Assembly (NCBI GenBank): GCA_050123235.1
Contig: JASFHL010000007.1
Span: 75 to 64,074 of the forward strand
Direction: 5' to 3'
DNA from: Candidatus Woesebacteria bacterium
GTDB taxonomy: Bacteria; Patescibacteriota; Microgenomatia; UBA1400; PJMF01
Length of the DNA: 64,000 nucleotides
Each line of letters opens with the position of its first letter. Position 1 is the first letter of the stretch. The notes below the pieces were generated by a model. The model was not told where the DNA came from and searched no databases. It saw only the letters and a program-made list of their open reading frames with translations. Positions 31,576-60,641 of the stretch are shown one piece after another. A program made the translations under genes and the position numbers.

Positions 31576-31616
31576 AAGTATTCTTCCAAAACACTTTTTT
31601 ATCTAAGAACATTTTC

Positions 31617-41671: not shown

Positions 41672-41696
41672 AAGTATAATACTATTCTTAATCTGC

Positions 41697-41731: not shown

Positions 41732-41734
41732 CAA

Positions 41735-43292: not shown

Positions 43293-45254
43293 ATGGCAAA
43301 CAAAACTACTGCTAAAATCATTGGTATTGATCTTGGAACCACTAATTCTGCTGTGGCTGTCATGGAAGCAGGTACAGCCAAAGTTATTCCAACAGCTGAA
43401 GGTCGCAATACTTTTCCTTCAATTGTTTCTTTCAAAGGAAAAGAAATCAAAGTTGGTGATCCAGCTAAACGCCAAATGGTGATGAATCCCAAGACTACTG
43501 TCCACTCAGTCAAAAGATTTATGGGTAGGCGTTTAAAAGATAAAGAAGTGCAAACTGCTATCAAAAATGTATCTTATGATATTGTGGAAGGTAAAGATGG
43601 CATGGCTGTGGTTGAAGTAGCTGGTAAAAAATATACTCCTCAAGAAATTTCTGCCAAAGTTTTATCTAAAGCTAAAGAGGATGCAGAAAGCTATCTGGGC
43701 TCCAAAGTTGAGCGAGCAGTGATTACTGTGCCAGCATATTTTGATGACTCCCAGCGTCAAGCTACCAAGCAAGCTGGTGAAATTGCTGGGCTGAAAGTAG
43801 AAAGAATTGTTAATGAGCCAACCGCTGCTGCTTTGGCCTATGGTTTGGATAAAAAAGGTAGCCAAACGATTGCTGTTTATGATCTTGGTGGTGGTACTTT
43901 TGATATTTCCATTTTAGAAATTGGAGACGGTGTTTTTGAAGTTAAATCTACCAATGGTGACACTTTTCTTGGTGGGAATGATTTTGATAATAAAATCATG
44001 GATTGGATTGTAGATGAATTTAAAAAAGAAACAGGCAAAGATCTATCCAAAGACCCACAAGCTATGCAGCGCATTAAGGATAGCGCAGAAAAAGCTAAAA
44101 TAGAGTTATCATCTTCTCAACAAACTGAGATCAATCAACCTTTTATTGCTCAAGGTGAAGACGGTCAAGCTTTACATCTTACCATGACACTCAGTCGTTC
44201 TAAGCTTGAAGAACTAGTTGATGATCTGATCAAAAGATCTATTACCCCGGTTAAAAAGGCACTCAAAGATGCCAAGCTAGATCCCAAAGATATTGACGAA
44301 GTGATCTTGGTTGGTGGTCAAACTAGGATGCCTAAAGTTCAAGAGGAAGTTAAAAAATTGTTTGGCAAGGAAGCACACAAAGGGGTTAATCCTGATGAGG
44401 TAGTGGCCATTGGCGCAGCTGTGCAAGCTGGCGTGATTTCTGGCGATGTTTCTGATGTAGTGCTTTTGGATGTCACTCCCTTGACTCTAGGTTTGGAAAC
44501 TTTAGGAGGAATTAGGACTCCTCTGATCGAGCGTAATACCACCATTCCCACCAGCAAGTCTCAGACTTTTTCAACAGCTGCTGATAATCAAACCCAAGTG
44601 GAAATTAATGTACTACAGGGCGAGCGCGAAATGGCTGCTGACAACAAAAGTTTAGGTCGTTTTTTCCTGGATGGTATTCCACCTGCTCCAAGAGGTGTGC
44701 CTCAAGTTGAAGTGGCCTTTGACATTGATTCCAATGGTATTCTGAACGTCACTGCTAAGGATAAAAATACTGGCAAAGAACAAAAAATTACCATTCAAAA
44801 CTCAACTAATTTGTCTGATGAAGAAATTGAAAAAATGAAAACTGACGCAGAAAAGCATGCTGAGGAAGATAAACAAAAGAAAGAGTTGATAGAAAGCAAA
44901 AACAAAGCCAATAGTGTTGCCTTTGAAATAGAAAAACAGCTCAAAGAATACGGTGATAAACTTGATGAAAAAGACAAAACCGCCATTGAAGAGAATGTAA
45001 AACAGCTCAAAGAAATGGCAGCCAAAGAGGACGCTAAAAAAGAAGAGTTGGATAAGGCTGTAGAAGAAACTCTCACTAGCGCTCAAAAAATTGGTGAGGC
45101 CATGCAAAAAGCACAAGCTACTCAGGCACAAGCAGGCGCTGGGGCTAAAGGTGATGATGCTGGTAAAGGCGGCAAAAAAAAGGCCAAAAAATCAGACAAA
45201 AAAGCTGCTGATGAGAAAAAAGATGCTGAAGAAGGGGAGGTAGTTGAAGAATAA
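43293..45254 (+). CDS. dnaK: chaperone DnaK (Hsp70)
   Basis: '[14 protein letters not shown]', 'DLGGGTFD' and a C-terminal 'EEGEVVEE'. Confidence 0.95.
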
Positions 45255-45825: not shown

Positions 45826-46131
45826 TTGACATATAATTATACATATAATATTATGTTTTATATGAGTCTAATGCCAACCATCGTCTCAGCTAGGGACATT
45901 CAAAGGAATTATCGCAAGATATTTGACCAAGTTAAAAATTCTAATCCTATTTTTGTGTTAAACAACAATCAACCTGAAGTAGCTATTATTGATATTAAAT
46001 TACTTGAAAGGCTATATCAAAAAGCCAAAAGAACCGACTTGCTAGAAGCATTGCAAGCTGTTAATATCTATCAAAAAGAGAAACAACTTAAGAAACTCAA
46101 AAAACTAAATTCACTTCGAGACTTGACTTAA
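45826..46131 (+). CDS. type II antitoxin, Phd/YefM family
   Basis: 'TIVSARDIQRNYRKIFDQVKNSNPIFVLNNNQPEVAIIDIKLLERL' matches the Phd/YefM pattern. The true start is probably an internal Met. Confidence 0.6.
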   Translation: MTYNYTYNIMFYMSLMPTIVSARDIQRNYRKIFDQVKNSNPIFVLNNNQPEVAIIDIKLLERLYQKAKRTDLLEALQAVNIYQKEKQLKKLKKLNSLRDLT

Positions 46132-46189
46132 ATCATTTAGTCTAATTAGCTGCCCAATACTCAGATAATTTTTTAATCACATTCAATTA

Positions 46190-46456
46190 ATGAATATCCA
46201 TACTATCTACTATACAAGCCATTTTGCCAAAAAGTATAAAAAGCTCCCTGTGAGAATCAAAAAATTAGCAGAAAAAAAAGAAAAAGTTTTTAGAAATAAC
46301 CTTGCTGCAAAAATATTGAAAACTCATAAATTAACTGGAAAATTAAAAAATTACTATGCTTTTTCCATTAATCGAGAATACCGCATTTTATTTTGTTTTG
46401 AAAAAGATGGCAGTGTGACTTTTATTAATATCGGGACGCACGCGATTTATCAATAG
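46190..46456 (+). CDS. type II toxin, RelE/ParE superfamily
   Basis: 88 aa. 'FAKKYKKL...KLTGKLKNYYAFSINREYRILFCFEKDGSVTFINIGTH' matches the RelE/YoeB-like pattern. Lies downstream of the antitoxin. Confidence 0.6.
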   Translation: MNIHTIYYTSHFAKKYKKLPVRIKKLAEKKEKVFRNNLAAKILKTHKLTGKLKNYYAFSINREYRILFCFEKDGSVTFINIGTHAIYQ

Positions 46457-46554: not shown

Positions 46555-48120
46555 ATGAAGCATAAACAAGCTTTGTTTGGTTTGTTGCTAGTTTTAAAAA
46601 AAGAAAAAAAATTAATTGCTATTTGTTTTGCTCTCTGTGCGCTTTTTCTTTTTCTTAGAATTTATAAACTTACTAGCTCATTTGAGCTGTTTGCTGATAT
46701 CGGACGTGATTTGCATGTCTTGATGTTGATGGTGATTGAAAAAAAACCACCTCTTTTAGGGCCGAGTACTAGCTGGCTGCCCATTAACCAAAGCCCAATA
46801 TATTTTTATATGCTTGTGCCGATTTTCTTACTTAGTGGCTTTTCCGGCTTTACTGTTCAGCTTACAGTTTTTGCCTTGTATTTAGTTTTTTTTGTGCTGG
46901 GAGTTTTATTTTTGCGACAGGATAAATTACTCTTAGCTGTGTTACTGGTAACAGCTTTACTGCTGACTATGCACCCAGAAGTTGTTTTACAAACTAGGTT
47001 ACCATGGAATCCTTCATTTGCTCCGCCTTTTTTACTCATGAGTATTTTTGTTTTAGTTTTGTTGCGGCAGAAATTTAGTCAATTAAAACTTTTTTTCCTA
47101 AGCTTGGGTTTGGTAATAGCAATTGCCTTGAGTTACTCCAATTTTCCAATCTTATCTTTGTTTTTTCTGTATTTGCTTTTCTCGTTTAGAAAAAATAGAC
47201 AGAGAATCTTGTCACTTTTTAGCAGTTTTTTCGTTTCTTTTTTGATTGCTTTTTTGCCAATTCTGATTTTTGAACTCAGAAATAAATTTTTCTTTTTCAA
47301 GCGTCTGACTATGGACGAACCATTTTTGATGAAGCCAAAAATTGATTATTTGCAAAAACTCACTTTATTTTTGAAATATTTAGGAGGTAGTTTTTTACCA
47401 GAGATGAATAGCTTAGTACTGCTAGTCATGTTTTTAGCCTTGTTGATTAATTTAATTTTGATCAAAGGACAATGGTGGCATAATTTTTTAAACAGAAAAA
47501 ACAAAAATGCTAAGGCAGCTAAGAAAGTTAGCAAGAACAAAGCTGTGAAAAAAACTAATTTTTCAGAACAAGATCAGTTATTTCTTTTCTTTTTAAAATT
47601 CTTCTTATTAATCTTTTTCTTTACTCTGCTGATGCCATTTAAGATTATGGCTCATTATATTTTTGCCACTTTGTGCTTGCTGTTTGTCACTTTGGCTTTA
47701 ATCAGGAAAGAACTGCTTTTGCCGTTGCTAGTAATTTTAGCCTTAATTTGGTTGCGACCAAGACAAGTCATTTTTTATACTGCCCCAGCCAAAAGGACAG
47801 TAGCTCAACTAGAAGCTTGTGCTAAAAAAGTTTGTCAAATAGAAAAAGAGCCGCTCTTTGTAACAGTGCAGGCTTGGTATCATTATCATTTTGCACCAGA
47901 TCATATTTTTTTCATGAATAAACATGGTTGCCAAGCTAGAGATATCACACAAAGTCCGGGCTTTGCTAATAAAATGGCCGTAGTCTCTGATCAATCAAAG
48001 TATGAACATGGTAAAACAGCTTTTAATGAGTTGACTTTATTTGGTGAGTCTGAATTGATGTTAGAATATCATTGCGAGGGTAATATTAGTATCTATATAT
48101 TAGAGAGGGTAGCAGAATAG
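46555..48120 (+). CDS. GT-C-like polytopic membrane protein (paralog 1)
   Basis: More than ten TM helices with an N-terminal periplasmic loop. 'LGPSTSWLPINQSPIYFYMLVPIF' is shared with paralogs 2 to 4. Confidence 0.45.
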   Translation: MKHKQALFGLLLVLKKEKKLIAICFALCALFLFLRIYKLTSSFELFADIGRDLHVLMLMVIEKKPPLLGPSTSWLPINQSPIYFYMLVPIFLLSGFSGFTVQLTVFALYLVFFVLGVLFLRQDKLLLAVLLVTALLLTMHPEVVLQTRLPWNPSFAPPFLLMSIFVLVLLRQKFSQLKLFFLSLGLVIAIALSYSNFPILSLFFLYLLFSFRKNRQRILSLFSSFFVSFLIAFLPILIFELRNKFFFFKRLTMDEPFLMKPKIDYLQKLTLFLKYLGGSFLPEMNSLVLLVMFLALLINLILIKGQWWHNFLNRKNKNAKAAKKVSKNKAVKKTNFSEQDQLFLFFLKFFLLIFFFTLLMPFKIMAHYIFATLCLLFVTLALIRKELLLPLLVILALIWLRPRQVIFYTAPAKRTVAQLEACAKKVCQIEKEPLFVTVQAWYHYHFAPDHIFFMNKHGCQARDITQSPGFANKMAVVSDQSKYEHGKTAFNELTLFGESELMLEYHCEGNISIYILERVAE

Positions 48121-48125
48121 AATTT

Positions 48126-48860
48126 ATGTCAGAAATAGAAACCATCCAAGAACCACAAAATTATCAAGAAGCTAAAGAATTCTTGATCAATTCAAGTCAT
48201 CCTAGAACTCATGCTGGTAAAGATACTAGAATTGCTCTCTTGAATAAAGTTTATGAAGGGGAAAGAGAAACTGTTTATGCAAAAATGCTTCAACAATATT
48301 TAAAAAAAGCATTTGAAGATAGAAGACGAGGCACAATTTTTCATTTATTGGAATTTCCAGAAACACGCAGATTAATGCTCATTAAAGCAGATAAAGATCG
48401 TTTCCCTAGAGAAATGTATGCAGAGGAAGTAAAAATTTTTCCCAGTGAATTATTGCCCTTTTTCCGTAATTATCTTGAAAGAATTGAAAGCTACTGCCAG
48501 GATCTCGATCCAAACACAGAGCGAGATGCAGAAGTAAAAACTCGAGTAGAAGAATTATTATTGGCAATTTTAAATAAACAAATTCCTGATACTAATTTTA
48601 CGCTTTATAAATTTTTATTTGATCATTTCAGGAGGAGTGATACTTCTCTAGATGAAACAAAAGGTGTTATTTATGATTATATAAGCTTGCCACTCAGTAA
48701 TTTAATTTTAGAAATAAAAAGTCATGCTGAAGATAGAAAATATCAAATGGCTAAAAGAGCCAGAATTATTTCAGAAGATCAATTTAGAAGAATAAAAACA
48801 TGGGAAGATGCTGATAGACAAAAAGGGTTACTACGAGCTAGACAAGCTAGGCTGCGCTAA
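48126..48860 (+). CDS. hypothetical soluble protein within the glycosyltransferase island
   Basis: 244 aa, R/E-rich and helical. Confidence 0.4.
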   Translation: MSEIETIQEPQNYQEAKEFLINSSHPRTHAGKDTRIALLNKVYEGERETVYAKMLQQYLKKAFEDRRRGTIFHLLEFPETRRLMLIKADKDRFPREMYAEEVKIFPSELLPFFRNYLERIESYCQDLDPNTERDAEVKTRVEELLLAILNKQIPDTNFTLYKFLFDHFRRSDTSLDETKGVIYDYISLPLSNLILEIKSHAEDRKYQMAKRARIISEDQFRRIKTWEDADRQKGLLRARQARLR

Positions 48861-48933
48861 GCCGCTAAGTAAGTATAAAATCTCGCAGTCGCTAGTTGTT
48901 AAGATCTAAGCTCAGGCATTACAATATTGCTAA

Positions 48934-50745
48934 ATGAAAAATAAAAAAGTTTCTCATCTTTTACAAAAAATTTTTCCAAAGAGCAAAAAATTTAAATTTT
49001 TTTTCAAAAAGGGTCTTTCTTGCCCTTTTTTAAAGAGATTTAGCTCATACTTTGCTATCTTTTTTTTGGTCGCGTTTACAGTAGCTCTTCGTTTTTTACC
49101 AATCTCCACAGGCAATTTTTCTTTTATGTATGATAATGCTAAGGATTCCCTGCTGATTCGCAGAATAGGGGTGCAACATAAACCCGCTTTATATGGAGCT
49201 GTCACTAGTATTGATGGAGTTTATAATGGACCACTTTGGTATTACTTAGCTCTACCTCTCAATTGCTTGCTTAATTATCACCCCATGGCTAGTATTTTGA
49301 TGGTGATTGTTTTGGCGGTTCTGTCTGTTTTAATTTTGTATTTTTCACTGGGTTTTTTTGAAGCATTTCTTTATGCCATCTCTTTTGGTCTAATTGCCAG
49401 TCAGCAATCGGCTTGGACGCCATACATGACGCCATTTGTGCTTTTACTAATTCTCTTAATTTTTTTAAGTTTTAAGTCAGAGTCTAAAAACAAACAATCA
49501 AAGTTTAAAAAAATTTCTAGTTTTTCAGGATTGATAAAATCTAAGCTGCTTAGGCTAGCTAGCCCCTTCCGCGCACTAAAAAAATTTAAATATCGATCTT
49601 TATGCCAAGCTTGTTTTGAGCAGCAAACTCTCAAATTAGCTAGTATTTTTTTACTCACATCTTTTGCTTTCCATTTTCAAACAGCCTATGGCATGGTTTT
49701 ATTACCCACGGTTTTAATTTTACTTTTTGTTTTAAAGATCAGACCAAATTCAAAACAAATTTTAATTAGCTTGCTGGCTTTTCTGATACCATTCACTCCT
49801 TTTTTTATTTTTGAACTTAGAAATGACTTTCATCAGAGCAAAGCAATTTTGCATTTTATCAAAGATTATAAAAATCAAGCTCAAGTGATTAATCCTAACC
49901 AAAAGGGTTTAGCCAGATGGGGAGAAATAGCAGGCTATATCTATCAAAGTAGCTGGCAAGCTTTAGCTCCAGCAGAAATTCCAGCTTTGGGTTGCTTGGG
50001 GGTGATGGGGATTTTTATATATTTGCTTGATCGCTGTTTATTGCGAAGATCAGTAGATAGATTTGAAGGGAAAATCTTTGCTGTTTTTATTTTAAGTCCA
50101 CTTATTTTTTATCAAATTTTACCTTGTAAATCATATTACCTAGTTGCCTTAATGCCAGTCTGGATTATTTTTTTTGCTAAATTTATTAGGGCTTATTTTG
50201 CTAAAATTCTACCGTTGCTAATAATTTTATTCACTGGGGTAGCTTTAATTAATTTAAGCCAAAGTCTTGATCATTACCAATTACTTGCTCAAACAGAATC
50301 TTTTCCATTCTCAGCTAAACTAGCTGCAGTTAAAAAAGTTTATCAATTAAGTGAAGGTCAAAAATTTAGTTCCTATCATTTTGTGCCAGAAGTATATGAT
50401 TACACTTACCAGCAAATTTATTTGTATTTGATTGACCAGGATTATCCAGAGCCTTTGGAGTTTAGCTATGCGCCAGGTGAATTTACTTATATGAGACCAC
50501 AGTATTTACCTTTGCAACCGCCTAAATTGCAAAAACAAGATAGTAGCCAAGCGGATGACTCCATGATGGCAGAAAATATCGAAACATCAAACTTAGTATT
50601 TTTAATTGTTGAGAAATATTACAGCCAAGAGGTTTTTAATCAATGGTGGCAACGAGTGAGTGCTGATTTGGAAATTTTGGAAAGTTCTCAAATTAATGAT
50701 GCGATTAGGGTTTATAAAGCGAGGAGGGTACAAATAAATGAGTAG
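48934..50745 (+). CDS. GT-C-like polytopic membrane protein (paralog 2)
   Basis: 'KPALYGAVTSIDGVYNGPLWYYLALPL' aligns with paralogs 3 and 4. Has a large C-terminal soluble domain. Confidence 0.45.
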   Translation: MKNKKVSHLLQKIFPKSKKFKFFFKKGLSCPFLKRFSSYFAIFFLVAFTVALRFLPISTGNFSFMYDNAKDSLLIRRIGVQHKPALYGAVTSIDGVYNGPLWYYLALPLNCLLNYHPMASILMVIVLAVLSVLILYFSLGFFEAFLYAISFGLIASQQSAWTPYMTPFVLLLILLIFLSFKSESKNKQSKFKKISSFSGLIKSKLLRLASPFRALKKFKYRSLCQACFEQQTLKLASIFLLTSFAFHFQTAYGMVLLPTVLILLFVLKIRPNSKQILISLLAFLIPFTPFFIFELRNDFHQSKAILHFIKDYKNQAQVINPNQKGLARWGEIAGYIYQSSWQALAPAEIPALGCLGVMGIFIYLLDRCLLRRSVDRFEGKIFAVFILSPLIFYQILPCKSYYLVALMPVWIIFFAKFIRAYFAKILPLLIILFTGVALINLSQSLDHYQLLAQTESFPFSAKLAAVKKVYQLSEGQKFSSYHFVPEVYDYTYQQIYLYLIDQDYPEPLEFSYAPGEFTYMRPQYLPLQPPKLQKQDSSQADDSMMAENIETSNLVFLIVEKYYSQEVFNQWWQRVSADLEILESSQINDAIRVYKARRVQINE

Positions 50746-50774
50746 TTATAAATATTATAGATAAGTATTTACAT

Positions 50775-50931
50775 CACTTAGTATATTATTAAACTAGGAA
50801 CCTTGAAGCGAAGTCATAAAAGAAAAGAATAAGATATAAGTAAGGACTGAGCTTCAGAGAAAAAGCTTTGTAGTGATGATTAAGCATTTAGCTTACTGCG
50901 ACTGTGTCTTAGTTTAATAATATACTAAGTG
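50775..50931 (+). repeat. family-B repeat, copy B2 (157 bp)
   Basis: Near-identical to B1 and followed by the A-type module GTAGCGAACGACTCTAAGATTTAT. Confidence 0.75.
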
Positions 50932-51002
50932 AAACAGCATACTATTCTGTAGCGAACGACTCTAAGATTTATTGCTATTGAGTTTTCAACAGTTTCCTTA
51001 AT

Positions 51003-52679
51003 ATGAAAAAAAGGATTAAATTACCAACAATTAATCTGTCCCGCAGAGAATTATGCTTATTCTTTTTAATTTTTTTACTGGGTTTAACTTTACGCCTCTA
51101 TCCTGGTCGTGATCACTACATTTGGTTTTACGACCAGGCTCGTGATCGCGCAGTCATTCAGTCTATCATTGAAGATAAAAATTTAGTTTTGTTGGGGCCA
51201 GCTACTTCTAAGTGGGGACTGTTTCATGGGCCATTATTCTATTATTTTTTAGCTCCCTTTTATTTTTTATCTCAAGGAGATACATTTTTAGCAATCTGGG
51301 CAATGATTTTGTTCAATTTATCAGCCATGATTCCTTTGGCACTCTTAACTTTTGCTCTTTTTAAAAATAAGAAAATAGTTTATTTATCTTTGTTTTTCTT
51401 TGCTATTTCTTATGAAATGATCGAATATGCTCGCTGGCTAACTAATGTTTCGATGGCCATTCCTTTTTTACTGTGGGCTTTTTACTTTGCTTATCGAATC
51501 AGACCTGATTTGTCTGAGCGAGAAATAATTAGCTATTTTTTAGGAAAAAGCAAATTACTTCCACAGAGCATTGCTAATCTTGTTCAACAGAAAAAAACAG
51601 TTTTACTGCCTATTTGTTTTGCTATCTCTCTAGGTTTAGCAATTCAAAGTGAGATTTTTTTAATTTATTTGATCCCTTTTTTCTTGCTATATTTTTTCTT
51701 GATTCATTTGTCTTTGCGCAAAATTCTACTATCAGCTTTGACTTTGATCTTAACTTTATCTCCTTTGGTTTTAGCGGAGTTTAAATTTTCCTTTCAGATG
51801 AGTAAAAGTTTTTTTCAGCAACTTTTGCAGACTGGAGCAGAAACTAGATTCTTTGTCAAAGAATCACTCTTAAAATATTTTGAACGGCTAGCTCTGAGTG
51901 CCCAACTTAATTTGTTTGGGCTGCCTTTAACTATGAGTTTTTTCATCTTATTAGTTACTTTTACTGCTGTTGTCTATTTTATGCGGCGAGAATCAGATAG
52001 AAATAAAAAAACTCTCTATTTTCTATTCTTTTTCTTATTTAGCCAAATAGTTTTATTTATTTTTCCCTTTGTTGATAGAATTTATTTAAATTTAACAGTA
52101 GGCATGTTGCTGATTATTTTAGCGGCTTATTTTTTGAACAAACTAATGCAATCTAAATTTGCAGCTTTAGCTAAACTAATACTGCTGTTATTTTTTTTAT
52201 TGCAAATTTTTCAATTGCGCAGCAATACTTTGGGTAAAACTCCTTTTAGTAAATATGAATCAACTTCACCAGCTTATATAATGTCTAGCTATTTTGCAGT
52301 GCTTGATAAAATTTATGAAGAAGCTGAAGGTGAGAAGTTTAGTATTGCAGTTTTGGCTAATCCTTATGGAGTACGTACCACTTGGGCTGGCATTTTTCAG
52401 ATTTATTTTAATAGAAAATCACTAGCAAATGAAGATCCGCCCACTTGGTTTGGCTACCATGCTAATGGTTACTGGGAGGATGATTACTTTCCCACTCTTG
52501 ACTATCCTCAAGACCTGCATTTTTTAATTATTTATCCGCAGTCTGATGGATTTTTGCCAGCACCGATTCTAGAAGAGTTTTTTGAGCAGCAGGATGACGC
52601 AACCTTGAAAATATCTGAGTATAATATTGATGAGATTATGGTGGAAAAGAGAATTAGAAAAGCAGAAATAGATAAATAA
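51003..52679 (+). CDS. GT-C-like polytopic membrane protein (paralog 3; ArnT/PMT-like topology)
   Basis: 'IWFYDQARDRAVIQSIIEDKNLVLLGPATSKWGLFHGPLFYYFLAPFYFLSQGD' near the N-terminus and 'WFGYHANGYWEDDYF' near the C-terminus. Confidence 0.5.
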   Translation: MKKRIKLPTINLSRRELCLFFLIFLLGLTLRLYPGRDHYIWFYDQARDRAVIQSIIEDKNLVLLGPATSKWGLFHGPLFYYFLAPFYFLSQGDTFLAIWAMILFNLSAMIPLALLTFALFKNKKIVYLSLFFFAISYEMIEYARWLTNVSMAIPFLLWAFYFAYRIRPDLSEREIISYFLGKSKLLPQSIANLVQQKKTVLLPICFAISLGLAIQSEIFLIYLIPFFLLYFFLIHLSLRKILLSALTLILTLSPLVLAEFKFSFQMSKSFFQQLLQTGAETRFFVKESLLKYFERLALSAQLNLFGLPLTMSFFILLVTFTAVVYFMRRESDRNKKTLYFLFFFLFSQIVLFIFPFVDRIYLNLTVGMLLIILAAYFLNKLMQSKFAALAKLILLLFFLLQIFQLRSNTLGKTPFSKYESTSPAYIMSSYFAVLDKIYEEAEGEKFSIAVLANPYGVRTTWAGIFQIYFNRKSLANEDPPTWFGYHANGYWEDDYFPTLDYPQDLHFLIIYPQSDGFLPAPILEEFFEQQDDATLKISEYNIDEIMVEKRIRKAEIDK

Positions 52680-52697
52680 TGGTAAATTTAATTAATT

Positions 52698-54269
52698 ATG
52701 CAATCAGTCAAAAATTTAACTAAGATAGAAATATTAATTTTGGTTTTCATTGTTATTCTAGGAATTTTTATAAGATTAATTCCAGGAAAAGGTCATTTCA
52801 TTTGGGATTATGATCAAGCAAGAGATTCTTTTGAAATTAGAAAAATTATTCAAAACAAAGATCTAATTTTAATTGGCCCACAAGCTGAAAAACATGGAAT
52901 GTTTCACGGGCCGTTATATTATTATTATTTGGCTCCTTTTTACTATCTTTCTCATGGTGATCAAAATTTACCTCTGTTAGCTATGATTTTTTTAAATTTA
53001 TCTAGCATTATTCCTCTGGCTTTATTAAGCAAACAATTATTTTCTAAACTTGGTTCAAAACAAAGTAAGTTGATCACGTTCTTAGTTATTTTTTTATTCG
53101 TAATTTCTTATGAACAAGTTGAATACGCTCGCTGGTTATCTAATGTTTCAATTACCATTCCACTTTTAGCATGGAGTTATTATTTTATTTGGAAATTGTT
53201 TAGCAGCAGAAAATATGCTTTTTATTTAGGCTTATCATTGGGTTTGGCAATTCAAGGAGAAATTTTTCTAATCTATTTAATTGCATATTCGTATCTATTA
53301 TTGCTTTTAAATAGACATAAAATAAAGGATTGGATAAAATTTCATTTTGGTCTAGCTGTTGGCCTATTACCTTTAATTCTTGCGGAATTAAAATTTAATT
53401 TTCAAAGCACAAAAACTTTTATCAATTATTTTATTAATCGTCATAGTGTAGAAGATTTATCAGCTGGACAGTCAATTCTAAGTTATTTAGATCATATGGG
53501 TTTTACTGTTAAGAATAATTTATCTGGTTTTTCAAACTCATTTGGTCTTTATTTTTTAATCCTGATATTAATTTTATATTTATTTTGGAAGAGAGATATT
53601 ACAAAACTGAAAATTAAGAAAGAAATTGCTTATATTTTCATTTGGCTTTTTTCTCATTTTATTCTTTTCTCATTTCATTTTGTTGATGCAGTATTTCTGA
53701 ATTTAGGCATAGGCTTAAGTATGATTTTTTTAATGTCATTTTTAATCTATTTATTTTGCTACAAAAAACAAAAAATCATGGCTTCTTTATTTTTGATTTT
53801 TGTAGTATTTATGCAAATCAGATTGTTAATGGTTAATACTCATCATAATCAACCATTTAATAAATTTAAGTTTGTTCAAAAAGATGCAATTCTTTTTAAA
53901 GAAAAGATAGCAATTGTTGATCAGATATATCAGTTAGCCAATAATGAGTCATTTACTTTTGCTGTTTTAGGAACACCTTATGGTGTAAGAACAAAATGGG
54001 CCAGTGTTTTTGAACAATATGCCAGACAAAATGATGTTGAGATACCACATTGGTTTGGCTACTATGCCAACGGCTATCCAGGGGAAAAACTGTTTATAAC
54101 TCAAGATTTTCCAGAACAAAAACATATTGTCTTAATCGAATCAAGTCAACACTTAATTGATCCTTACACCAGAAAAAATTATCTAATAGAGCAGGATAGA
54201 ACAACGAGATTGATAGAGGAAAAGGAATTGTATGGTCATAGAATTCAGTTGCGGGAGAGAAAAGAGTAA
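52698..54269 (+). CDS. GT-C-like polytopic membrane protein (paralog 4; tandem duplicate of paralog 3)
   Basis: 'IWDYDQARDSFEIRKIIQNKDLILIGPQAEKHGMFHGPLYYYYLAPFYYLSHGD' and 'WFGYYANGYPGEKLF' are collinear with paralog 3. Confidence 0.5.
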   Translation: MQSVKNLTKIEILILVFIVILGIFIRLIPGKGHFIWDYDQARDSFEIRKIIQNKDLILIGPQAEKHGMFHGPLYYYYLAPFYYLSHGDQNLPLLAMIFLNLSSIIPLALLSKQLFSKLGSKQSKLITFLVIFLFVISYEQVEYARWLSNVSITIPLLAWSYYFIWKLFSSRKYAFYLGLSLGLAIQGEIFLIYLIAYSYLLLLLNRHKIKDWIKFHFGLAVGLLPLILAELKFNFQSTKTFINYFINRHSVEDLSAGQSILSYLDHMGFTVKNNLSGFSNSFGLYFLILILILYLFWKRDITKLKIKKEIAYIFIWLFSHFILFSFHFVDAVFLNLGIGLSMIFLMSFLIYLFCYKKQKIMASLFLIFVVFMQIRLLMVNTHHNQPFNKFKFVQKDAILFKEKIAIVDQIYQLANNESFTFAVLGTPYGVRTKWASVFEQYARQNDVEIPHWFGYYANGYPGEKLFITQDFPEQKHIVLIESSQHLIDPYTRKNYLIEQDRTTRLIEEKELYGHRIQLRERKE

Positions 54270-54400
54270 GTTTGTTTTTAGAAGCTAGACGTTTGATTAA
54301 ATATGGTCACCAGGTAAAGTAGGCCTTGAATGAGTTCCTGTCTTTCAAACTATAACAGTTGGCAGCTCCATTTATACTGAATTTTGCTATACTAAAACTC

Positions 54401-55090
54401 ATGAAACTATCTGTCATCGTTCCCGTTTATAATGAAGCGGCTACCATTGCGGAAATTCTTAATAAATTAGTCAAAGTCAAGGACGTTTATGAAATTATTA
54501 TTGTTAATGACGGCTCTACTGATCACAGTCTCCAAATTATTGAAAAAACGAAAAAAGAATTAGGCAAGCTTAAAGCTAGAAAGATCAAAGTTTTTGACAA
54601 AGAAAATGGAGGCAAGGGTAGTTCAGTCCGTTTAGCTTTGACTAAGGTCACTGGAGATTATGTTTTAATCCAAGATGCTGATCTGGAATATGACCCTGAT
54701 GATATTGCTGCTTTATTGGAGCCGATCAAAAAAGGCAGAGTTGAGGTGGTTTATGGCTCTCGTTTTTTAGGTCCACATTCCAATCTTTTGTTTTGGCACA
54801 AAGTTGGCAATACTTTTTTAAATTTAGTGGTAAATATACTCTACGACACCACGCTTTCTGATATGGAGACTTGTTATAAAGTTTTACCCACTAAGCTCTT
54901 TAAGGAACTTGATATTAAAGCAGCTAAATTTGATTTAGAACCAGAAATTACTTGTAAAGTTTTAAAAAAAGGTATCAGGATTTTTGAAGTACCAATTACT
55001 TATATAGGGAGAGATTTTTCTGAAGGTAAAAAAATTACTTGGAAAGATGGCTTTTCAGCTTTGTGGACTATTATCAAGTTGAGGTTTTAG
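54401..55090 (+). CDS. GT2 polyprenol-phosphate glycosyltransferase (DPM1/GtrB/ArnC-like)
   Basis: 'MKLSVIVPVYNEAATI', 'IIVNDGSTDHS' and 'LIQDADLEYDP' (DxD). The start is set at the ATG at 54401 rather than the TTG at 54359. Confidence 0.75.
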   Translation: MKLSVIVPVYNEAATIAEILNKLVKVKDVYEIIIVNDGSTDHSLQIIEKTKKELGKLKARKIKVFDKENGGKGSSVRLALTKVTGDYVLIQDADLEYDPDDIAALLEPIKKGRVEVVYGSRFLGPHSNLLFWHKVGNTFLNLVVNILYDTTLSDMETCYKVLPTKLFKELDIKAAKFDLEPEITCKVLKKGIRIFEVPITYIGRDFSEGKKITWKDGFSALWTIIKLRF

Positions 55091-55101
55091 TGCCACTTAA
55101 A

Positions 55102-57216
55102 ATGAAAAATTTGTTAAATTTATATGATTTAATAATACTGAACATGTCCTACCCGTTATTTAGTATTTCATTCATCCTACATTTCTTACTCTTCATCTTA
55201 GCTTTGTTTTTTTCTCTTTATTTACCAGGGTCTTTCTTTATCAATTCTCTTTTTTCTAAAAGCAAAGTTCCTCAATTAAAAAAATATAGCGCCTTACTCA
55301 AACTGGTTTCATCTTTGGTTTTGGGATTAGTGTTATGGACAGCTCAAGGTGTATTTTTTGGCTATTTACGATTGAGAAATCTAAGTTATCTTTATATAAT
55401 TTTTTTCTTTTTAGCTTTTTTGTGGCAAAAAAAACCCAGTTTGAGCAAAATTTTTGTTGCCGCAAAAGCAATTGGCAAAAATTTTAAATCAATCAATCCT
55501 GTTGTTTTAATTTTTCTAACAATTGGCTCTTTTTTGCAACTCTTAGTGATCAGTGGCTCTGGCTTTTTGAGTGAGCAAGGAATTAAGTTTTATTTTGATA
55601 ATGCAGCTGAACCGATCATGCATTTAGCCTATATCCAAGCTTTGATTCGTAATTTTCCAGCAATAGAACCTGGTTTAGCAACAGTGCCTTTGCTTAATTA
55701 TCATTATTGGTCAGATTTTTTTATGGCCGAACTAGCTAGAGTTTGGCAATTACCAGTTATTCATCTCTATTTTCATTTTTTACCCCCGCTACTCGCTATC
55801 TTGAGTAGTTTTTTGATTTATTTGATTGTTAAAGCATGGCGAGGTACTGATTTAGTGGCTTTTTTAGCTTTGTTTTTCTTTTTCTTTGGGGCTGATGCTG
55901 CCTATACTATTTATTTTTTACTTCACCGACAACTTAGTTTTCATGTTGCTGGGATTGATAATGGCATGGAACAGTTTTTCAATTCACCTCATGTTTTTGC
56001 CAAGCTGATTTTTTTGGCAAGTTTACTGGTTTTATTTTTCTGGCAAAAGCTGAGTTCAAAACAAAGAAGCCTAGATAAAAAATGGGGCTTACTTTATTTG
56101 ACTTTAGCAGCTCCTTTAGTTGGTTTTAAGGTTTATTATGGTATTTTTTCAGCTATTGCTTTGTCAGTGCTGGTAGCTGTTAGAGTTTTGAAAGCTATCT
56201 ATAAAAAAGACTGGCGAAACTGGCGTTCAATTTTTCTCCAAGAAAAATTTTCACTGTTTTTATTGTTTTTATTCGCTCTAATTTCGGCGACTATTTATTT
56301 TCCAACTAATAGCAGTGCTGGCGGCCTATTTTTCATTCCATTGGAATGGCCGAAATTGTTATTAGCGCCACACAATTTAGATTTTAATGATTGGTTTCTT
56401 CGTCAACAGGTCTATCACGCTGCTGGAAATATTCGCAATTTACTAATTCTGGACTTTTTGGCAATATTAATTGCTTTGATTAGTATTCATGGCACAAGAT
56501 TAATTGGTTTTTTGCCCACCAAAAAATTGGCTAAAATTCTGGGATTTGAATATTTACTTTACTTATTAATTCCTAGCATTATTTTCACTATTGCTGGTTT
56601 TTTTACCCTGCAACAGTCAGGCGCTTTTAATGTGTTTAATTTTTTTATTGTCAGTTTAATTGTTTTTAGTTTTTTTGCTGCCTTTAGATTGGCAGATTTT
56701 TTAAAGTCAAAAAACTTTTTCCTAAAAATTCTGGCTGTGTTGATTATAATTTTGACAGTCCCCAAATCAACTCATGCTCTTTATTTAGCCGCCACAGAAC
56801 TGAATGATGCAGAAGCACAGATCTTGGTTAGTAAAGTTGAACTAGAAGCTTTTATAAAATTACGCAGTCTTTTGCCAGCAACGGCAGTTGTCCAATCTCA
56901 TCCTAAAAATAGCTTAGACCAAGACACACCTTATTTATCTTTTTTTCTTAATAGACAAAGTTATTCAGCTGGTTTCAATCTATTGGAGAATCTGGGCAAA
57001 GCTAATTTAGAAAGAAAAACTAATTTAGAAAAAATGTTTTTAACTGAAGATGCTACCAGTCTAGCCAGTGAGATGAGGCAGCGTGGTATAGATTACCTTT
57101 ATTTACAAAAAAAGCCAGCTCAAAAGCTGAATTTTGATTTAGCAAAAAGTGATAATATATTTAAAGTGCTTTATGAAGATGAACTAGTGCTGGTAGTGGG
57201 TCTTGCAGAACAGTGA
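55102..57216 (+). CDS. large polytopic membrane protein, YfhO/GT-C-like
   Basis: About 700 aa with more than 12 TM helices. Immediately downstream of the GT2, as in CsbB/YfhO and GtrB/GtrC pairs. The start is set at Met 55102. Confidence 0.4.
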   Translation: MKNLLNLYDLIILNMSYPLFSISFILHFLLFILALFFSLYLPGSFFINSLFSKSKVPQLKKYSALLKLVSSLVLGLVLWTAQGVFFGYLRLRNLSYLYIIFFFLAFLWQKKPSLSKIFVAAKAIGKNFKSINPVVLIFLTIGSFLQLLVISGSGFLSEQGIKFYFDNAAEPIMHLAYIQALIRNFPAIEPGLATVPLLNYHYWSDFFMAELARVWQLPVIHLYFHFLPPLLAILSSFLIYLIVKAWRGTDLVAFLALFFFFFGADAAYTIYFLLHRQLSFHVAGIDNGMEQFFNSPHVFAKLIFLASLLVLFFWQKLSSKQRSLDKKWGLLYLTLAAPLVGFKVYYGIFSAIALSVLVAVRVLKAIYKKDWRNWRSIFLQEKFSLFLLFLFALISATIYFPTNSSAGGLFFIPLEWPKLLLAPHNLDFNDWFLRQQVYHAAGNIRNLLILDFLAILIALISIHGTRLIGFLPTKKLAKILGFEYLLYLLIPSIIFTIAGFFTLQQSGAFNVFNFFIVSLIVFSFFAAFRLADFLKSKNFFLKILAVLIIILTVPKSTHALYLAATELNDAEAQILVSKVELEAFIKLRSLLPATAVVQSHPKNSLDQDTPYLSFFLNRQSYSAGFNLLENLGKANLERKTNLEKMFLTEDATSLASEMRQRGIDYLYLQKKPAQKLNFDLAKSDNIFKVLYEDELVLVVGLAEQ

Positions 57217-57240
57217 ATAATTTAGCTATGTTTCTATTAT

Positions 57241-59712
57241 ATGAATATGTTTAGTAATTTTAAACAAATAAAGTTTAATATGAAACTCCTTCGACAGCCT
57301 TATTTTAAATTTGCTTTGATATTTTTAATTTTATTGGGCATCCGTTTTTACCCAATTTTTTTTCAAAATAAGAGTTTATTTTTTGGCGACAACTATGCTT
57401 TGATGGTGCCTGGAAAAATTTTTACAGCCCGCTGGCTAAGGCATGGCGTTTTGCCTTTATGGAATCCAACGATTTTAGCTGGTATCTCTTGGATTGGGGA
57501 TGTAAATCAATCTATTTTGTATCCTAGCACTTTATTTTTTGTTTTTTTGGAAGCAAGCACTGCATTAACAGTAACTGTTATCAGTCATTTGCTGATTTCA
57601 GTGTTAGGCATGTATTACATCGTATTACAATGTATACAGAATAAGAAAAACACTAAGCAAGTTAATTTAGTTAGCAATAAACAATCAATCTCTTTTTTAT
57701 CCGCCTGTCTGTGGGTTTTTTCCACTCAGCTCACTAACTCAATTAATAATATTTCAATGCTGCAGTCATTAGCTTGGCTGCCATGGCTGGTTTTCTTAGC
57801 TTTTAAAATTAGGAAAAACTTAAAAAATAAGTTTTTATTTGCCATAGTAGTTTTTTTACAATTTGCTGGTGGTTATCCGCAACATGTGATTTATGGCATC
57901 TTGACAGCAGTTTTGATTTCTAGTTTTTATTTTTTTCAGCCTCAACTTACTGCTAAGAAAATAAAAATTTGGCTAAATCATTGGTCTATAACAGCTCTTT
58001 TTACTTTACTATTATCAGCAGTTATTTATTTGCCATTTCTCGAAACTCTGTTAAATTCCACCCGCACTTTACAAACAGAAACACAAGCAGTGTCTGGTTC
58101 ATTGCATCCGATGGAATTAATTAAAATGCTGCTGCCTTATTTTTTTGAAAGCCCACATGATGGGATGCGTTGGGGGCCGATGTGGAACAGCATGCCCAAC
58201 GTAACAATTTATTTCACTGGCTTTGCTTTTTTGATGTTGCTACTTTCTTTGCTTAATAAAAAATTAAGAGACTCGGAAATTAAATTTTTTGCGCTATTCC
58301 TTTTTTTAACTTTAATTTTAGCTTTAGGAAAGTATTTACCTTTTTTTGCTACTTTGCAGCAGATTTTGCCTATCTTTAAAATTACCAGAGGGCCGAGCTT
58401 GATTTTAACTGTCAGTACTTTTGTGGCAATCACTTACTTAGGTTTGGCTTTGACAAAAATTATATCAAAAACTAAAAACTCTAAAACTAAATTTCGATTT
58501 CTTACTAAGATCAATTTTTTAAGTAAATTGCCTGTTTTCAGTAAAAATGCTGGGCGAATTTTTTCTTTTTTTCTTTTTTTAATACTGATCATATTTTTAA
58601 GTTTATCCCTCTTAGCTAAATTCAATTTTAACTTAGTTTGGGATTTAGCTAATAGAATGGGTAACAATTTTTTAATCAACAGTGCTTTTCATAGTTTTGA
58701 AAAAGATCAGATAATTTTGAAGGTGATTAGTCAAAATGTTTTATTTAACTGTATTTTCTTTTTGATCGCAGTTTTAGCTTGGCAAAGAAAAAGGATTTTA
58801 TTACTGACTTTAATTTTGTCTCTAGACATGATTTACAACACTCAAGGCATGCTCTTTTTTGCCCCGCGAGATATTTATCCATCGTGGCAAGAGATAGAGA
58901 CAGCTAATCCGATTTTTAGTCAAACAAATAATTATCGTTATTTGATCCGCAACTACAATTATCCTTATACAGATTTTGGTGCTTATTGGGAGGCTTTGCT
59001 AGTTAGAAAACCATTTTCTGATTCTTATATTGATGAAGAAGAATTAGCTAGTTACAAAAATCTAAAGCGTTTTGCTAAAGGTATGACCCCTGATTGGAAT
59101 ATACCCTTTTTATTGCAGTCAATTAATGGTTACACCACGCTTTTACCCAAAGACAGTCATCAGTTATGGAATCCAGATCAGGAGACAAGAATTAATAATT
59201 TGGCAGAAATTAAATTAGATAATCCATTACTTAAAAAGTGGGCAGTTAAATTTTATTTAGTGGATGATTGGTTTTTTGTAAATGAAGATTTGTCTTCCTT
59301 AGCAGTTATTTATGAAAAAGATTGGTGGCAAGTTTATGAATTGCCAGCTCTACCAAGGTTTAGATATGAAGACGATACAGCTATCAACTTTGACCAAGAC
59401 CATATTGAGAATCCTAATTTTATCTCGCTGAAATTCAATAATGATAGCAGTCATAGTCACTTATTAATTGCTGATCGCTATGATAAAAATTGGCGGGCTT
59501 GGGTGAATGGTCAAGAAGTTGAGATTGAAAATTTTGAAAGGATGAGAAAAGTTAAAATTACAGCTGGTAAGAATCAGGTAGTATTTAAATATCAGCCAAA
59601 GTTGTTTTATTTGGGAGCTGCTATCTCTATTTTAAGTTTTTTAGCAGTCTCCTTATTCATCTGCTTAACATTTTTTATTTTCCCTGTTAAAATTAAACGC
59701 GTTGCCAAATAG
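57241..59712 (+). CDS. large polytopic membrane protein, YfhO-like
   Basis: 823 aa with many TM helices, an extracytoplasmic C-terminal domain and a final TM anchor. Confidence 0.4.
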   Translation: MNMFSNFKQIKFNMKLLRQPYFKFALIFLILLGIRFYPIFFQNKSLFFGDNYALMVPGKIFTARWLRHGVLPLWNPTILAGISWIGDVNQSILYPSTLFFVFLEASTALTVTVISHLLISVLGMYYIVLQCIQNKKNTKQVNLVSNKQSISFLSACLWVFSTQLTNSINNISMLQSLAWLPWLVFLAFKIRKNLKNKFLFAIVVFLQFAGGYPQHVIYGILTAVLISSFYFFQPQLTAKKIKIWLNHWSITALFTLLLSAVIYLPFLETLLNSTRTLQTETQAVSGSLHPMELIKMLLPYFFESPHDGMRWGPMWNSMPNVTIYFTGFAFLMLLLSLLNKKLRDSEIKFFALFLFLTLILALGKYLPFFATLQQILPIFKITRGPSLILTVSTFVAITYLGLALTKIISKTKNSKTKFRFLTKINFLSKLPVFSKNAGRIFSFFLFLILIIFLSLSLLAKFNFNLVWDLANRMGNNFLINSAFHSFEKDQIILKVISQNVLFNCIFFLIAVLAWQRKRILLLTLILSLDMIYNTQGMLFFAPRDIYPSWQEIETANPIFSQTNNYRYLIRNYNYPYTDFGAYWEALLVRKPFSDSYIDEEELASYKNLKRFAKGMTPDWNIPFLLQSINGYTTLLPKDSHQLWNPDQETRINNLAEIKLDNPLLKKWAVKFYLVDDWFFVNEDLSSLAVIYEKDWWQVYELPALPRFRYEDDTAINFDQDHIENPNFISLKFNNDSSHSHLLIADRYDKNWRAWVNGQEVEIENFERMRKVKITAGKNQVVFKYQPKLFYLGAAISILSFLAVSLFICLTFFIFPVKIKRVAK

Positions 59713-59786: not shown

Positions 59787-60641
59787 ATGTCAAATAAAAG
59801 AGACTATTATGAAGTGCTAGGTCTTAAAAAAGACGCTACTGATCAAGCAATTAAATCAGCTTATCGCAAAATGGCTCTGAAATATCATCCCGATAAAAAT
59901 AAAGCTAAAGATGCAGAAGAAAAGTTTAAGGAGATAAACGAAGCTTACCAAGTTTTATCTGATAAAAAAAAGCGTCAAACTTACGACCAGTTTGGTCATA
60001 GTGCCTTTAATGCTGGAGCTGCTGGGGGCGCTAATCCTTTTGGTGGTGGTTTTCAATCTGGGCCATTTACTTGGAGTTATTCCACTACCGGGGCGAATCC
60101 TTTTGATGGCTTTGATTTTGGAGATCCATTTGAGATTTTCGAGTCATTTTTTGGAGGTGCTGGATTTAGACAAGCGCGTCGTCGACCACGTTACACTTTG
60201 AAGATTGATTTTATAGAAGCTGTCAAAGGAACGAACAAAGAGGTGGAGATTGAAGGTAAAAAACAAAAAATTAAAGTTCCTGCTGGTGTTAATGATGGCA
60301 CAAGAATTCGTTTTGATGAATTTGATATTAGTTTTGATGTGGCCGCTCATCCTCAGTTTAAACGAGATGGCTATGATTTATTTATTGATAAAAAAATTAA
60401 TCTTAGTACTGCTTGTCTAGGTGGAAAAATAGAAGTTCCGACAGTAGATAAAAAACTCAAAATGAAAGTCAGGTCAGGTACGCAGTCTCACACTTTGGTG
60501 CGACTCCGCGGTGAAGGTGTGCCACATATCAGAGGCAGGGGCAAGGGTGATTTATATGTCAGATTGATAGTGGAAATTCCTGAGGATCTGACAAGAGAAC
60601 AGAAAAAATTGTTGGAGCAGTTGAAGGAAAACGGATTATAA
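59787..60641 (+). CDS. DnaJ-like co-chaperone lacking the zinc-finger domain (CbpA-like)
   Basis: J-domain '[12 protein letters not shown]...KYHPDKN', a G/F-rich region and C-terminal substrate-binding domains. No CxxCxGxG repeats. Confidence 0.75.

Follow-up and report, generated by a model that had tools for sequence, protein, structure and literature searches.

The DNA analysed here, referred to as the window, is a stretch of 64,000 nucleotides from a Candidatus Woesebacteria contig (JASFHL010000007.1, positions 75 to 64,074 of the forward strand), and our subject is a run of genes within it that separates the chaperone genes dnaK and dnaJ and is predicted to encode seven glycosylation enzymes, one without a membrane anchor and six embedded in the membrane. 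Ten co-directional open reading frames (ORFs) fill the interval between dnaK (43293-45254, + strand; Pfam HSP70 2.8e-256 and NCBIfam DnaK), its upstream boundary, and dnaJ (59787-60641, + strand; Pfam DnaJ and DnaJ_C), its downstream boundary, after which nusA and infB come next. Eight of the ten make up the array itself; all are on the + strand and lie where a sequence-only reading of this DNA had placed them. Six of these encode polytopic proteins that we consider to be glycosyltransferases of the GT-C fold: M1 (46555-48120, 521 amino acids, about 10 hydrophobic segments), which belongs to a branch called M1-type below; M3 (48934-50745, 603 amino acids) of subfamily 'a'; M4 (51003-52679, 558 amino acids) of subfamily 's'; M5 (52698-54269, 523 amino acids) of subfamily 'b', the PMT_2 branch; M7 (about 690-704 amino acids and about 13 hydrophobic segments, ending at 57216); and M8 (57241-59712, 823 amino acids), a GT-C of the YfhO family. 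The M7 ORF as listed from 55039 overlaps the preceding gene, and its start is likely at 55102, or at 55144 as in the 690-amino-acid NCBI call. That preceding gene, GT2 (54401-55090, 229 amino acids), encodes a family 2 glycosyltransferase of the GT-A type, a predicted polyprenyl-phosphate sugar synthase. The eighth ORF, X2 (48126-48860, 244 amino acids), starts 5 nucleotides past M1 and breaks up the membrane-protein array with a soluble, highly charged product, for which scans of Pfam and NCBIfam gave no match at E<=1 and whose profile hidden Markov model matched the window alone, with no counterpart in 85 comparison loci. Strongly hydrophobic segments number 8-13 in each of the six M proteins and zero in GT2 and X2. 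M4 and M7 are identical in sequence to NCBI PVJ09_04190 and PVJ09_04205, respectively, and M8 to an entry annotated as a 'YfhO family protein'.

The six membrane proteins had been described as paralogs, two of them as YfhO-like, and neither description is borne out, since they fall into three unrelated sequence families (M1/M3/M4/M5, M7 and M8) and M8 is the only YfhO protein by sequence, M7 having no match in Pfam or NCBIfam. When aligned to the M1/M3/M4/M5 group profile with hhalign, M7 and M8 reached 0.1% and 1.1%, respectively, and no sequence relation was detectable. Within the first family M4 and M5 are 36% identical over 551 amino acids (E 8e-103), and the motifs YDQARD, GPLxYYxLAPFYxLSxGD and WFGYxANGY that had been quoted for them are present in both. 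The similarity of M1 and M3 to other array members was weak in BLAST searches; in hhalign comparisons to the M4/M5 family profile, M1 aligned over 266 columns with 97.2% probability and M3 over 409 columns with 98.6% probability. Both also have the same first-loop motif, D-x-x-[RK]-D ... GP ... P-x-[YWF]-[YF]-Y, as had been claimed, and the features common to all four proteins comprise an R ending the first transmembrane segment, D-x-x-[RK]-D, GP, P-x-[YWF]-[YF]-Y and E-[LF]-[KR]-x-x-F. What these proteins have in common thus extends to loop motifs, beyond low-complexity transmembrane segments. The acidic motif lies at D48-x-x-R51-D52 in M1 (46696-46710), at D67-x-x-K70-D71 in M3 (49132-49146) and at D39-x-x-R42-D43 in M5 (52812-52826), while in M4 the residues D44, R47 and D48 (51132-51146) as well as E259 are invariant, D44 and D48 having been checked across 18 sequences. 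Since this acidic first loop follows a basic N-terminus and a first transmembrane segment, it should lie outside according to the positive-inside rule.

Family membership of the M1/M3/M4/M5 group was established through relatives and through the fold. The Pfam PMT_2 model (PF13231; GT39/GT83-like GT-C in CAZy terms) is matched by 6 of the 18 members of the M4/M5 family, and four M5-type relatives exceed its gathering cut-off of 26.1 bits (P0006 with 32.9, P0010 with 35.8, P0013 with 29.0 and P0017 with 26.5 bits), the alignments covering profile positions 1-155 of 160. By transitive homology and fold, M1, M3, M4 and M5 thus belong to PMT_2 at the superfamily level. At a limit of E<=1e-3 the M4/M5 family profile recovered 5,403 cluster representatives, and 516 of them at E<=1e-30, which makes this family a large one. 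An AlphaFold2 model of M4 (predicted local distance difference test, pLDDT, 86.4; predicted template modelling score, pTM, 0.87), in which a C-terminal alpha/beta domain spans approximately residues 420-558, found as its best Foldseek match ArnT with bound undecaprenyl phosphate (5f15; E 2.5e-7, TM-scores 0.54/0.56), to which M4 is only 10-11% identical in sequence, and further matches were Pmt4 (5.4e-5), STT3, ALG9, DPY19 and AftB. Comparison of the M4 family alignment profile with sequences of the Protein Data Bank gave no meaningful match. The weak Pfam and NCBIfam matches that appeared for M1, M3, M4, M5 and M7 (CbiQ, FixQ, DUF6708) were at noise level and were dismissed.

M7 represents a family for which Pfam has no model: none of its 46 homologs carries a Pfam domain, and the few with an organism label come from the Candidate Phyla Radiation (CPR), namely Woesebacteria, Roizmanbacteria and the Patescibacteria group. 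Its AlphaFold2 model is of high confidence (pLDDT 91.5, pTM 0.93), and all 16 significant top matches in Foldseek were GT-C enzymes, among them DPY19 (6.7e-8), STT3, AglB, PglB, AftA and ArnT, with a C-terminal globular domain that resembles the C-terminal domain of AglB (3vu0). On the basis of this model we confidently predict a GT-C fold for M7, which forms a family of its own. Two more specific assignments were rejected. M7 as a second YfhO is at odds with the missing Pfam match and with an hhalign value of 24.6% against the YfhO-family profile that contains M8, and M7 as an oligosaccharyltransferase of the STT3/AglB/PglB type is at odds with the absence of WWDxG from the sequence and from the family consensus. 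In addition, the M7 family profile gave no meaningful match, and no oligosaccharyltransferase in particular, among the Protein Data Bank sequences, and the likeness to AglB is one of overall fold and of the shape of the C-terminal domain. M8, in turn, matches the Pfam YfhO model (PF09586) with 44.9 bits at a cut-off of 28.5, the match covering only the last 73 model positions; the same model is matched by 22 of 34 M8 orthologs and carried by most M8 homologs, and distant YfhO proteins align to the N-terminal half. These matches make M8 a member of the YfhO family. Its first loop after the first transmembrane segment contains G-D-N-Y with an invariant D50 (57388-57390), and the family alignment profile found no meaningful match among Protein Data Bank sequences. 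The expected polytopic GT-C proteins with an acidic extracytoplasmic loop motif are accordingly found in the fold of M4 and M7, the YfhO assignment of M8 and the loop motifs, the placement of the loops outside being taken from the positive-inside rule only.

The GT2 protein matched Pfam Glycos_transf_2 (PF00535) with 5.6e-33, and its NCBIfam matches included AglJ (1.7e-36), ArnC, PgfS (5.8e-15), a dolichol-phosphate (Dol-P) hexose transferase and PpgS. The nearest solved structures are the Pyrococcus Dol-P-mannose synthase PfDPMS (5mlz; 1.7e-13, residues 1-214), for which the roles of the catalytic and acceptor-loop residues have been described (PMC5526996), and ArnC. Both the DxD motif and the polyprenyl-phosphate signature that had been noted earlier were recovered. 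D92-A-D94-L-E96 (54674-54688) aligns to DADLQH of PfDPMS with Glu in place of Gln, and R204-D-F-S-E-G-K210, containing the acceptor-loop residues R204 and K210, aligns to R202...K208 (signature R-x-x-G-E-S-K) with the order of G and S swapped. The alignment also retains the Arg of G-S-R-[FY] and shows no conservation of Arg131/Ser135, which bind phosphate in PfDPMS. The protein ends just past the second interface helix and in this respect is like the anchor-less DPM1 class, unlike GtrB or CsbB. DPM1-type synthases without a transmembrane anchor occur in mycobacteria and humans. GT2 orthologs from 34 related loci are 223-281 amino acids long with 0-1 predicted transmembrane segment. At one relative's locus (L003, 11560-13315) an M4-type gene is followed by a GT2 gene, a gene for a DUF2304 protein of 113 amino acids and a GT2 gene on the opposite strand; by analogy with the streptococcal GacJ, this small membrane protein may partner a GT2 without transmembrane segments. 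No DUF2304-like small ORF adjoins the GT2 gene of the window.

The position of these genes was compared across relatives by scanning one genome per species with a YfhO alignment, which yielded 79 loci whose ORFs were called and scored with profiles of the window proteins; a strong M8 ortholog is present in 45 of them, hereafter the related loci. Sufficient sequence before yfhO was available for 43 loci, and in 38 of them an orthologous GT2 gene precedes yfhO on the same strand, 32 having it within 200 nucleotides, often with an overlap. DnaK is encoded upstream and DnaJ downstream of the M8 ortholog in 32 of the 45 related loci, usually in the order GrpE-DnaK-GT2-YfhO-DnaJ-NusA, and we found no description of a GT2-YfhO pair between dnaK and dnaJ in the literature. 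The 35 DnaK-DnaJ intervals with both flanks, the window included, range from 3.0 to 14.5 kb with a median of 3.8 kb, and GT2 and YfhO are the sole content of about half of them. The 14.5-kb interval of the window is the largest of the 35 and the sole one with M1-, M4- or M7-type genes, and a single species (L019) has a PMT_2-like pair inside its interval. In the closest relative (L007), whose YfhO is 51% identical to M8, the order exonuclease, GT4, GH39, HrcA, GrpE, DnaK, Phd/YefM, GT2, YfhO, DnaJ, NusA, IF-2, S15 is common to both genomes, and the dnaK-GT2 gap of other species holds unrelated ORFs. What is conserved at this site is thus the GT2-YfhO core; the interval around it is a hot spot for insertions, and its most expanded version is that of the window genome.

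Upstream of dnaK the window carries hrcA (41735-42454, + strand), which precedes grpE and dnaK, and grpE (42438-42968, + strand), located between hrcA and dnaK. HrcA is short (239 amino acids) and matches only the C-terminal domain in Pfam, and the DnaJ of 284 amino acids has the J and C-terminal domains with the zinc-finger domain not matched; these reduced forms are conserved in the relatives' loci, where DnaJ has approximately 284-295 amino acids. The first two ORFs of the interval are a Phd/YefM-like antitoxin gene (45826-46131, + strand; PF02604, 4.3e-7) and a YafQ/RelE-like toxin gene (46190-46456, + strand; PF15738, 4.9e-6). This type II toxin-antitoxin pair (45826-46456) is context and stands outside the glycosylation system; a Phd/YefM gene occupies the same site in L007 (8758-9036). 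Many of the database records that contain the L007-L066 loci are titled 'uncultured Pseudomonadales', a title that does not fit their CPR-like gene content and was probably assigned in error.

A tree and an identity matrix divide the PMT_2-like proteins into four groups, 'a', 'b', 's' and M1. M3 is 55% identical to the 'a' protein of L001 and 41-42% to those of L019 and L003, M5 is 49-50% identical to P0006 and the 'b' protein of L019, and M4 is 42% identical to P0004 in the 's' group and 38% identical to M5 in the same matrix, while M1 groups with proteins of L039 and L050 that adjoin YfhO and GT2. Identity among the PMT_2-like paralogs of the window is 17-38%, and each has closer orthologs in other genomes. 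The description of M4 and M5 as collinear tandem duplicates therefore stands as far as collinear full-length homology is concerned, but the two proteins, being just 36-38% identical and having closer orthologs elsewhere, represent old lineages, and a recent tandem duplication was rejected on the matrix and the tree. Adjacent 'a-b' pairs with 'a' upstream recur in L001, L003 and L019, the 'a' proteins named above being these upstream members, and the window has M4, together with a duplicated piece of non-coding DNA, wedged between 'a' (M3) and 'b' (M5). Elsewhere in relatives, genes of the a, b, s and M7 types sit among genes for RmlB/C/D-like enzymes, Wzx flippase, LCP ligase and cytoplasmic GT2 and GT4 glycosyltransferases, and one 21-kb wall-polysaccharide locus encodes nine polytopic proteins of at least 430 amino acids. 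M7-like genes were found in 66 metagenome loci, and in 36 such loci a PMT_2-like gene was present in 21, a YfhO-like gene in 11 and a GT2 gene in 11. Because the relatives' wall-polysaccharide loci hold the same GT-C types, one of them with nine polytopic proteins, multiplicity of GT-C genes is a recurrent CPR trait. The unusual multiplicity that had been remarked upon is thus real for this chromosomal site but not for CPR generally, and the unusual part is its location in the window genome.

The segment between M3 and M4 is a copy of DNA found upstream of hrcA. Within the 257-nucleotide gap between the two genes, 50754-50957 (no strand assigned) is approximately 90% identical to 41492-41693, and this duplicated segment of about 200 nucleotides contains a 159-nucleotide element with 26-nucleotide inverted terminal repeats (50774-50799 / 50907-50932), which sits 71 nucleotides upstream of M4. 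Each arm (TCACTTAGTATATTATTAAACTAGGA) is itself a CTTAGT-N10-ACTAAG palindrome, and a third, solo arm (8584-8609) lies 23 nucleotides upstream of pgk. The element has an RNA fold z-score of -5.95, corresponds to no Rfam family, and its core had no match in 86 loci or in the metagenome collection. On the hrcA side the copy is followed by TTGACT and a degenerate repeat resembling the controlling inverted repeat of chaperone expression (CIRCE), TTAGCAGTC-N9-TATTGCTAG, just before the start codon (41697-41734), and the equivalent place before hrcA in L007 (3930-3985) has TTAGCAAAC-N9-GATTGCTAA. The copy on the M4 side is without the left half of the CIRCE-like repeat. With up to 3 mismatches allowed, the window contains no canonical CIRCE; no CIRCE-like site was found before groES (22416), and scans for promoters and terminators did no better than shuffled sequences. 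Judging from this arrangement, the duplication may supply a promoter for the genes from M4 to dnaJ after the insertion parted them from the hrcA promoter. A broader proposal, which we regard as speculative and rather doubtful, is that in this clade of Woesebacteria/Pacebacteria-like CPR the GT2 and YfhO genes are co-transcribed within the hrcA-grpE-dnaK-dnaJ heat-shock operon, so that glycosylation of proteins or wall polymers outside the cell would be a stress-regulated arm of proteostasis, with the growth to six transferases in the present genome and the duplicated hrcA regulatory region before M4 keeping the downstream genes, dnaJ included, under the same control.

The array had been likened to lipid-carrier systems in which a GT2 synthesizes the donor for a GT-C (CsbB/YfhO, GtrB/GtrC, ArnC/ArnT and Ppm1/Pmt), and this logic fits every test run. 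We consider it probable as a whole that the GT2 loads undecaprenyl phosphate with a sugar, that a flippase exposes the sugar and that the six GT-C transfer it, or other lipid-linked sugars, to differing acceptors. Judged by homology, the GT2 would act at the cytoplasmic face and load undecaprenyl phosphate with one sugar unit taken from a nucleotide sugar, and because it has no transmembrane segment it would have to be held at the membrane by amphipathic helices or by a partner. A flippase encoded elsewhere would then take the lipid-linked sugar to the outer leaflet. There, as fold, family and the conserved acidic loop residues suggest, the six polytopic GT-C, namely four PMT_2/ArnT-like enzymes of four old subfamilies, one enzyme of an un-named family (M7) and one YfhO, would use it outside the membrane, each glycosylating a different acceptor, or a different site, among the envelope glycopolymers. 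Given the gene neighborhoods of the GT-C in relatives, the acceptors would most likely be wall glycopolymers. In evolutionary terms, comparison of the loci indicates that a GT2-YfhO core in the order hrcA-grpE-dnaK-[GT2-yfhO]-dnaJ was joined by five other GT-C genes, each of a separately conserved lineage, that have been gathered at the dnaK site in this genome. A sugar-1-phosphate nucleotidyltransferase with an N-terminal ribbon-helix-helix domain is encoded at 6476-7294 (- strand) in a pgk-NTP_transferase-aldolase string and is a possible source of the nucleotide sugar for the GT2.

Several points weigh against this lipid-carrier model. The NCBIfam scores of the GT2 all lie far below the equivalog cut-offs, and its 229 amino acids contain no hydrophobic segment, unlike CsbB, GtrB, ArnC and the archaeal Dol-P-mannose synthase with their C-terminal transmembrane helices, and because of both points its use of a lipid-phosphate acceptor is put forward here as a prediction from conserved residues. 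Neither a GtrA nor a Wzx (Polysacc_synt) flippase was detected when 50 window ORFs were scanned with Pfam (five short ORFs were not scanned), and a flippase gene may lie beyond the 64-kb window, a situation known from several systems. None of M1, M3, M4 and M5 matched PMT_2 itself at E<=1, the TM-scores of the M7 model to solved GT-C structures are just 0.34-0.44, and no catalytic residue could be located in M7. Furthermore, the model supposes that all six GT-C would be fed by this one GT2 and deduces their acceptors from gene neighborhoods, and the literature searched on CPR, Patescibacteria and Microgenomates offered nothing relevant on YfhO, GT-C or wall glycosyltransferases.

The same observations have been weighed for other readings. 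That the membrane proteins might be transporters, polymerases or ligases, their likeness to GT-C reflecting a generic polytopic architecture, could be argued from the lack of a direct Pfam match for five of the six and from the moderate TM-scores (0.34-0.56) to solved GT-C structures. However, no transporter family was matched in Pfam or NCBIfam, so that the outcome named beforehand as refuting the glycosyltransferase reading did not occur, all significant fold matches of M4 and M7 are GT-C enzymes, with other membrane proteins appearing only at E>0.05, the gathering scores of PMT_2 and YfhO are passed by family members, and loop motifs are conserved besides the transmembrane segments, so that we give this reading very little credence. 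Hardly more credible is the suggestion of phase-variable or rapidly diversifying glycosylation, in which gene copies would be switched or recently duplicated to vary the surface. The gene content of the site does differ among species, with intervals of 3.0-14.5 kb that often hold unrelated inserts and a toxin-antitoxin gene, and the geometry of the 159-nucleotide segment flanked by inverted repeats upstream of M4 fits an invertible switch, but this element is a copy of one that lies upstream of the housekeeping hrcA operon, and no recombinase gene lies within 17 kb of it. Moreover, the region 45.2-59.8 kb contains neither homopolymer runs (at least 9 A/T or at least 7 G/C) nor tandem repeats, and the paralogs, being 17-38% identical, each have closer orthologs elsewhere. 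Phase variation based on repeats is essentially excluded, and inversion is unlikely.

Two further readings accept the glycosyltransferases and differ from the lipid-carrier model in what they would build. In one, the six GT-C would act in sequence outside the membrane, like an assembly line whose product is one glycan or lipoglycan and whose sole donor is a polyprenyl-phosphate sugar, much as mycobacterial Ppm1 supplies PimE, MptA, MptB and MptC for lipomannan and as DPM1 of the endoplasmic reticulum supplies ALG3/9/12. One donor synthase facing six transferases in one co-directional array would suit such a pathway, as would the Dol-P-mannose synthase as best solved relative of the GT2 and its lack of a transmembrane anchor, as in DPM1-type enzymes, the presence of AftA and AftB among the fold matches, and the adjacent 'a-b' pairs kept in L001, L003 and L019, which consecutive steps or a heterodimer would predict. 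In relatives, however, the same GT-C types are scattered over loci in varying combinations, where a fixed pathway predicts otherwise, and most relatives hold GT2 and YfhO alone at the dnaK site, so that we consider a single assembly line unlikely. In the other reading, which we regard as somewhat less plausible still, the GT2 and YfhO, perhaps with the PMT_2-like enzymes, would O-glycosylate secreted or membrane proteins in the manner of streptococcal GtrB/PgtC2 and PgfS/PgfM1 and of actinobacterial Ppm1/Pmt, their place in the operon reflecting co-regulation with the chaperones. The name PMT_2 derives from protein O-mannosyltransferases, in 32 of the 45 related loci the genes for DnaK and DnaJ flank the GT2-YfhO pair, the hrcA-upstream copy sits before M4, and the GT2 matches the NCBIfam model PgfS as given above. 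There is also a streptococcal precedent, the YfhO-family enzymes PgtC2 and PgfM1, which O-glycosylate Ser/Thr-rich regions of PrsA, PBP1a, LytR and PknB (PMC11092751). In contrast, Bacillus and Listeria use their YfhO enzymes to modify teichoic acids (PMC8035078), and within the window no protein has a Ser/Thr-rich stretch, the maximum being 37% S+T per 30 residues. Gene order alone does not demonstrate co-regulation, and no promoter or terminator signal rose above background in the scans.

The lipid-carrier model can be set beside systems already described, and the published definition of multi-component transmembrane glycosylation permits both a GT-A without transmembrane segments and one GT-A serving two GT-C (PMC8035078). 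One likeness is to CsbB/GtcA/YfhO of Bacillus subtilis, Staphylococcus aureus and Listeria monocytogenes, which modify lipoteichoic or wall teichoic acid: a YfhO-family GT-C gene is paired directly with the GT2 gene, and the predicted route is the same, with C55-P-sugar made inside and transferred outside (PMC8035078). However, the GT2 of the window has no transmembrane helices and no GtrA-type flippase nearby, and the pair is embedded in the dnaK operon with five further GT-C genes at the locus. To our knowledge, teichoic acids are not known in CPR. In Lactococcus lactis (CsdAB/CsdCD/CsdEF with CflA) and streptococci (GacI/J/K/L), PMT_2-type GT-C decorate rhamnose-rich wall polysaccharides, and GacI with GacJ is a precedent for a GT-A without transmembrane segments such as that of the window (PMC8035078). 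The relatives' a-, b- and M7-type genes, lying among Rml, Wzx and LCP genes, add to this likeness, but the Csd and Gac systems consist of one-to-one GT-A/GT-C pairs, whereas the window has one GT-A to six GT-C and no rhamnose, Wzx or LCP genes there. With ArnC/ArnT (GT83) and GtrA/B/C the window shares ArnT as best structural match of M4 and ArnC among the best matches of the GT2, although a CPR cell, unlike the Gram-negative hosts of these systems, is not expected to offer lipid A or O-antigen as acceptor, and ArnE/F or GtrA genes are absent. Ppm1 with Pmt, PimE and MptA-C, and DPM1 with ALG3/9/12, PMT and DPY19, show that one synthase, sometimes anchor-less, can feed many GT-C families, as proposed here, but the genes of those systems are dispersed and those of the window arrayed. 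Finally, in streptococcal GtrB/PgtC2 and PgfS/PgfM1/PgfM2 a GT2 works with YfhO-family GT-C, and two GT-C genes at one locus parallel the multiplicity seen here; the targets include extracytoplasmic folding and wall-synthesis proteins (PMC11092751), whereas the window has no Ser/Thr-rich candidate substrates and the array no epimerase gene.

As the mechanism is already known from Firmicutes, Proteobacteria, Actinobacteria and eukaryotes, our finding extends existing knowledge; three points are new, and the literature searched contained nothing on them: the CPR setting with GT2-YfhO fixed inside a chaperone operon, the one-to-six arrangement and a GT-C family that Pfam does not model. CPR bacteria, whose genomes measure approximately 1 Mb and whose envelope is almost uncharacterised, live attached to other cells. 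In the present genome 13 kb, more than 1% of a CPR genome of this size, are given to seven predicted glycosylation enzymes at one site, and these enzymes are good candidates for shaping the CPR cell surface and hence for host attachment. The comparison also defines units that recur beyond this genome: the GT2-YfhO pair in the dnaK operon of dozens of species, four old PMT_2-like subfamilies including the recurrent 'a-b' pair, and the Pfam-less GT-C family. If the link to the chaperone operon were regulatory, surface glycosylation would be tied to heat shock in a way that is new.

Two other features of the window lie apart from this site. The ORF at 13170-14651 (- strand) encodes a protein of 493 amino acids with at least 7 hydrophobic segments, a first-loop motif resembling D-x-x-R-x-D (NDLTRIDLGRH) and a soluble C-terminal part; it had no Pfam match, and neither hhalign against the PMT_2-like and YfhO profiles nor hmmsearch with the three GT-C families detected a relation, but it may be a seventh GT-C-like protein. 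Two tRNA genes, at 25132-25205 (- strand) and 25359-25427 (+ strand), are followed by genes for a serine recombinase (25416-27176) and a Rep3_N-like protein (27436-28092), by unannotated ORFs and by a tyrosine integrase gene (32920-33789), and the region 25132-33789 looks like an integrated mobile element.

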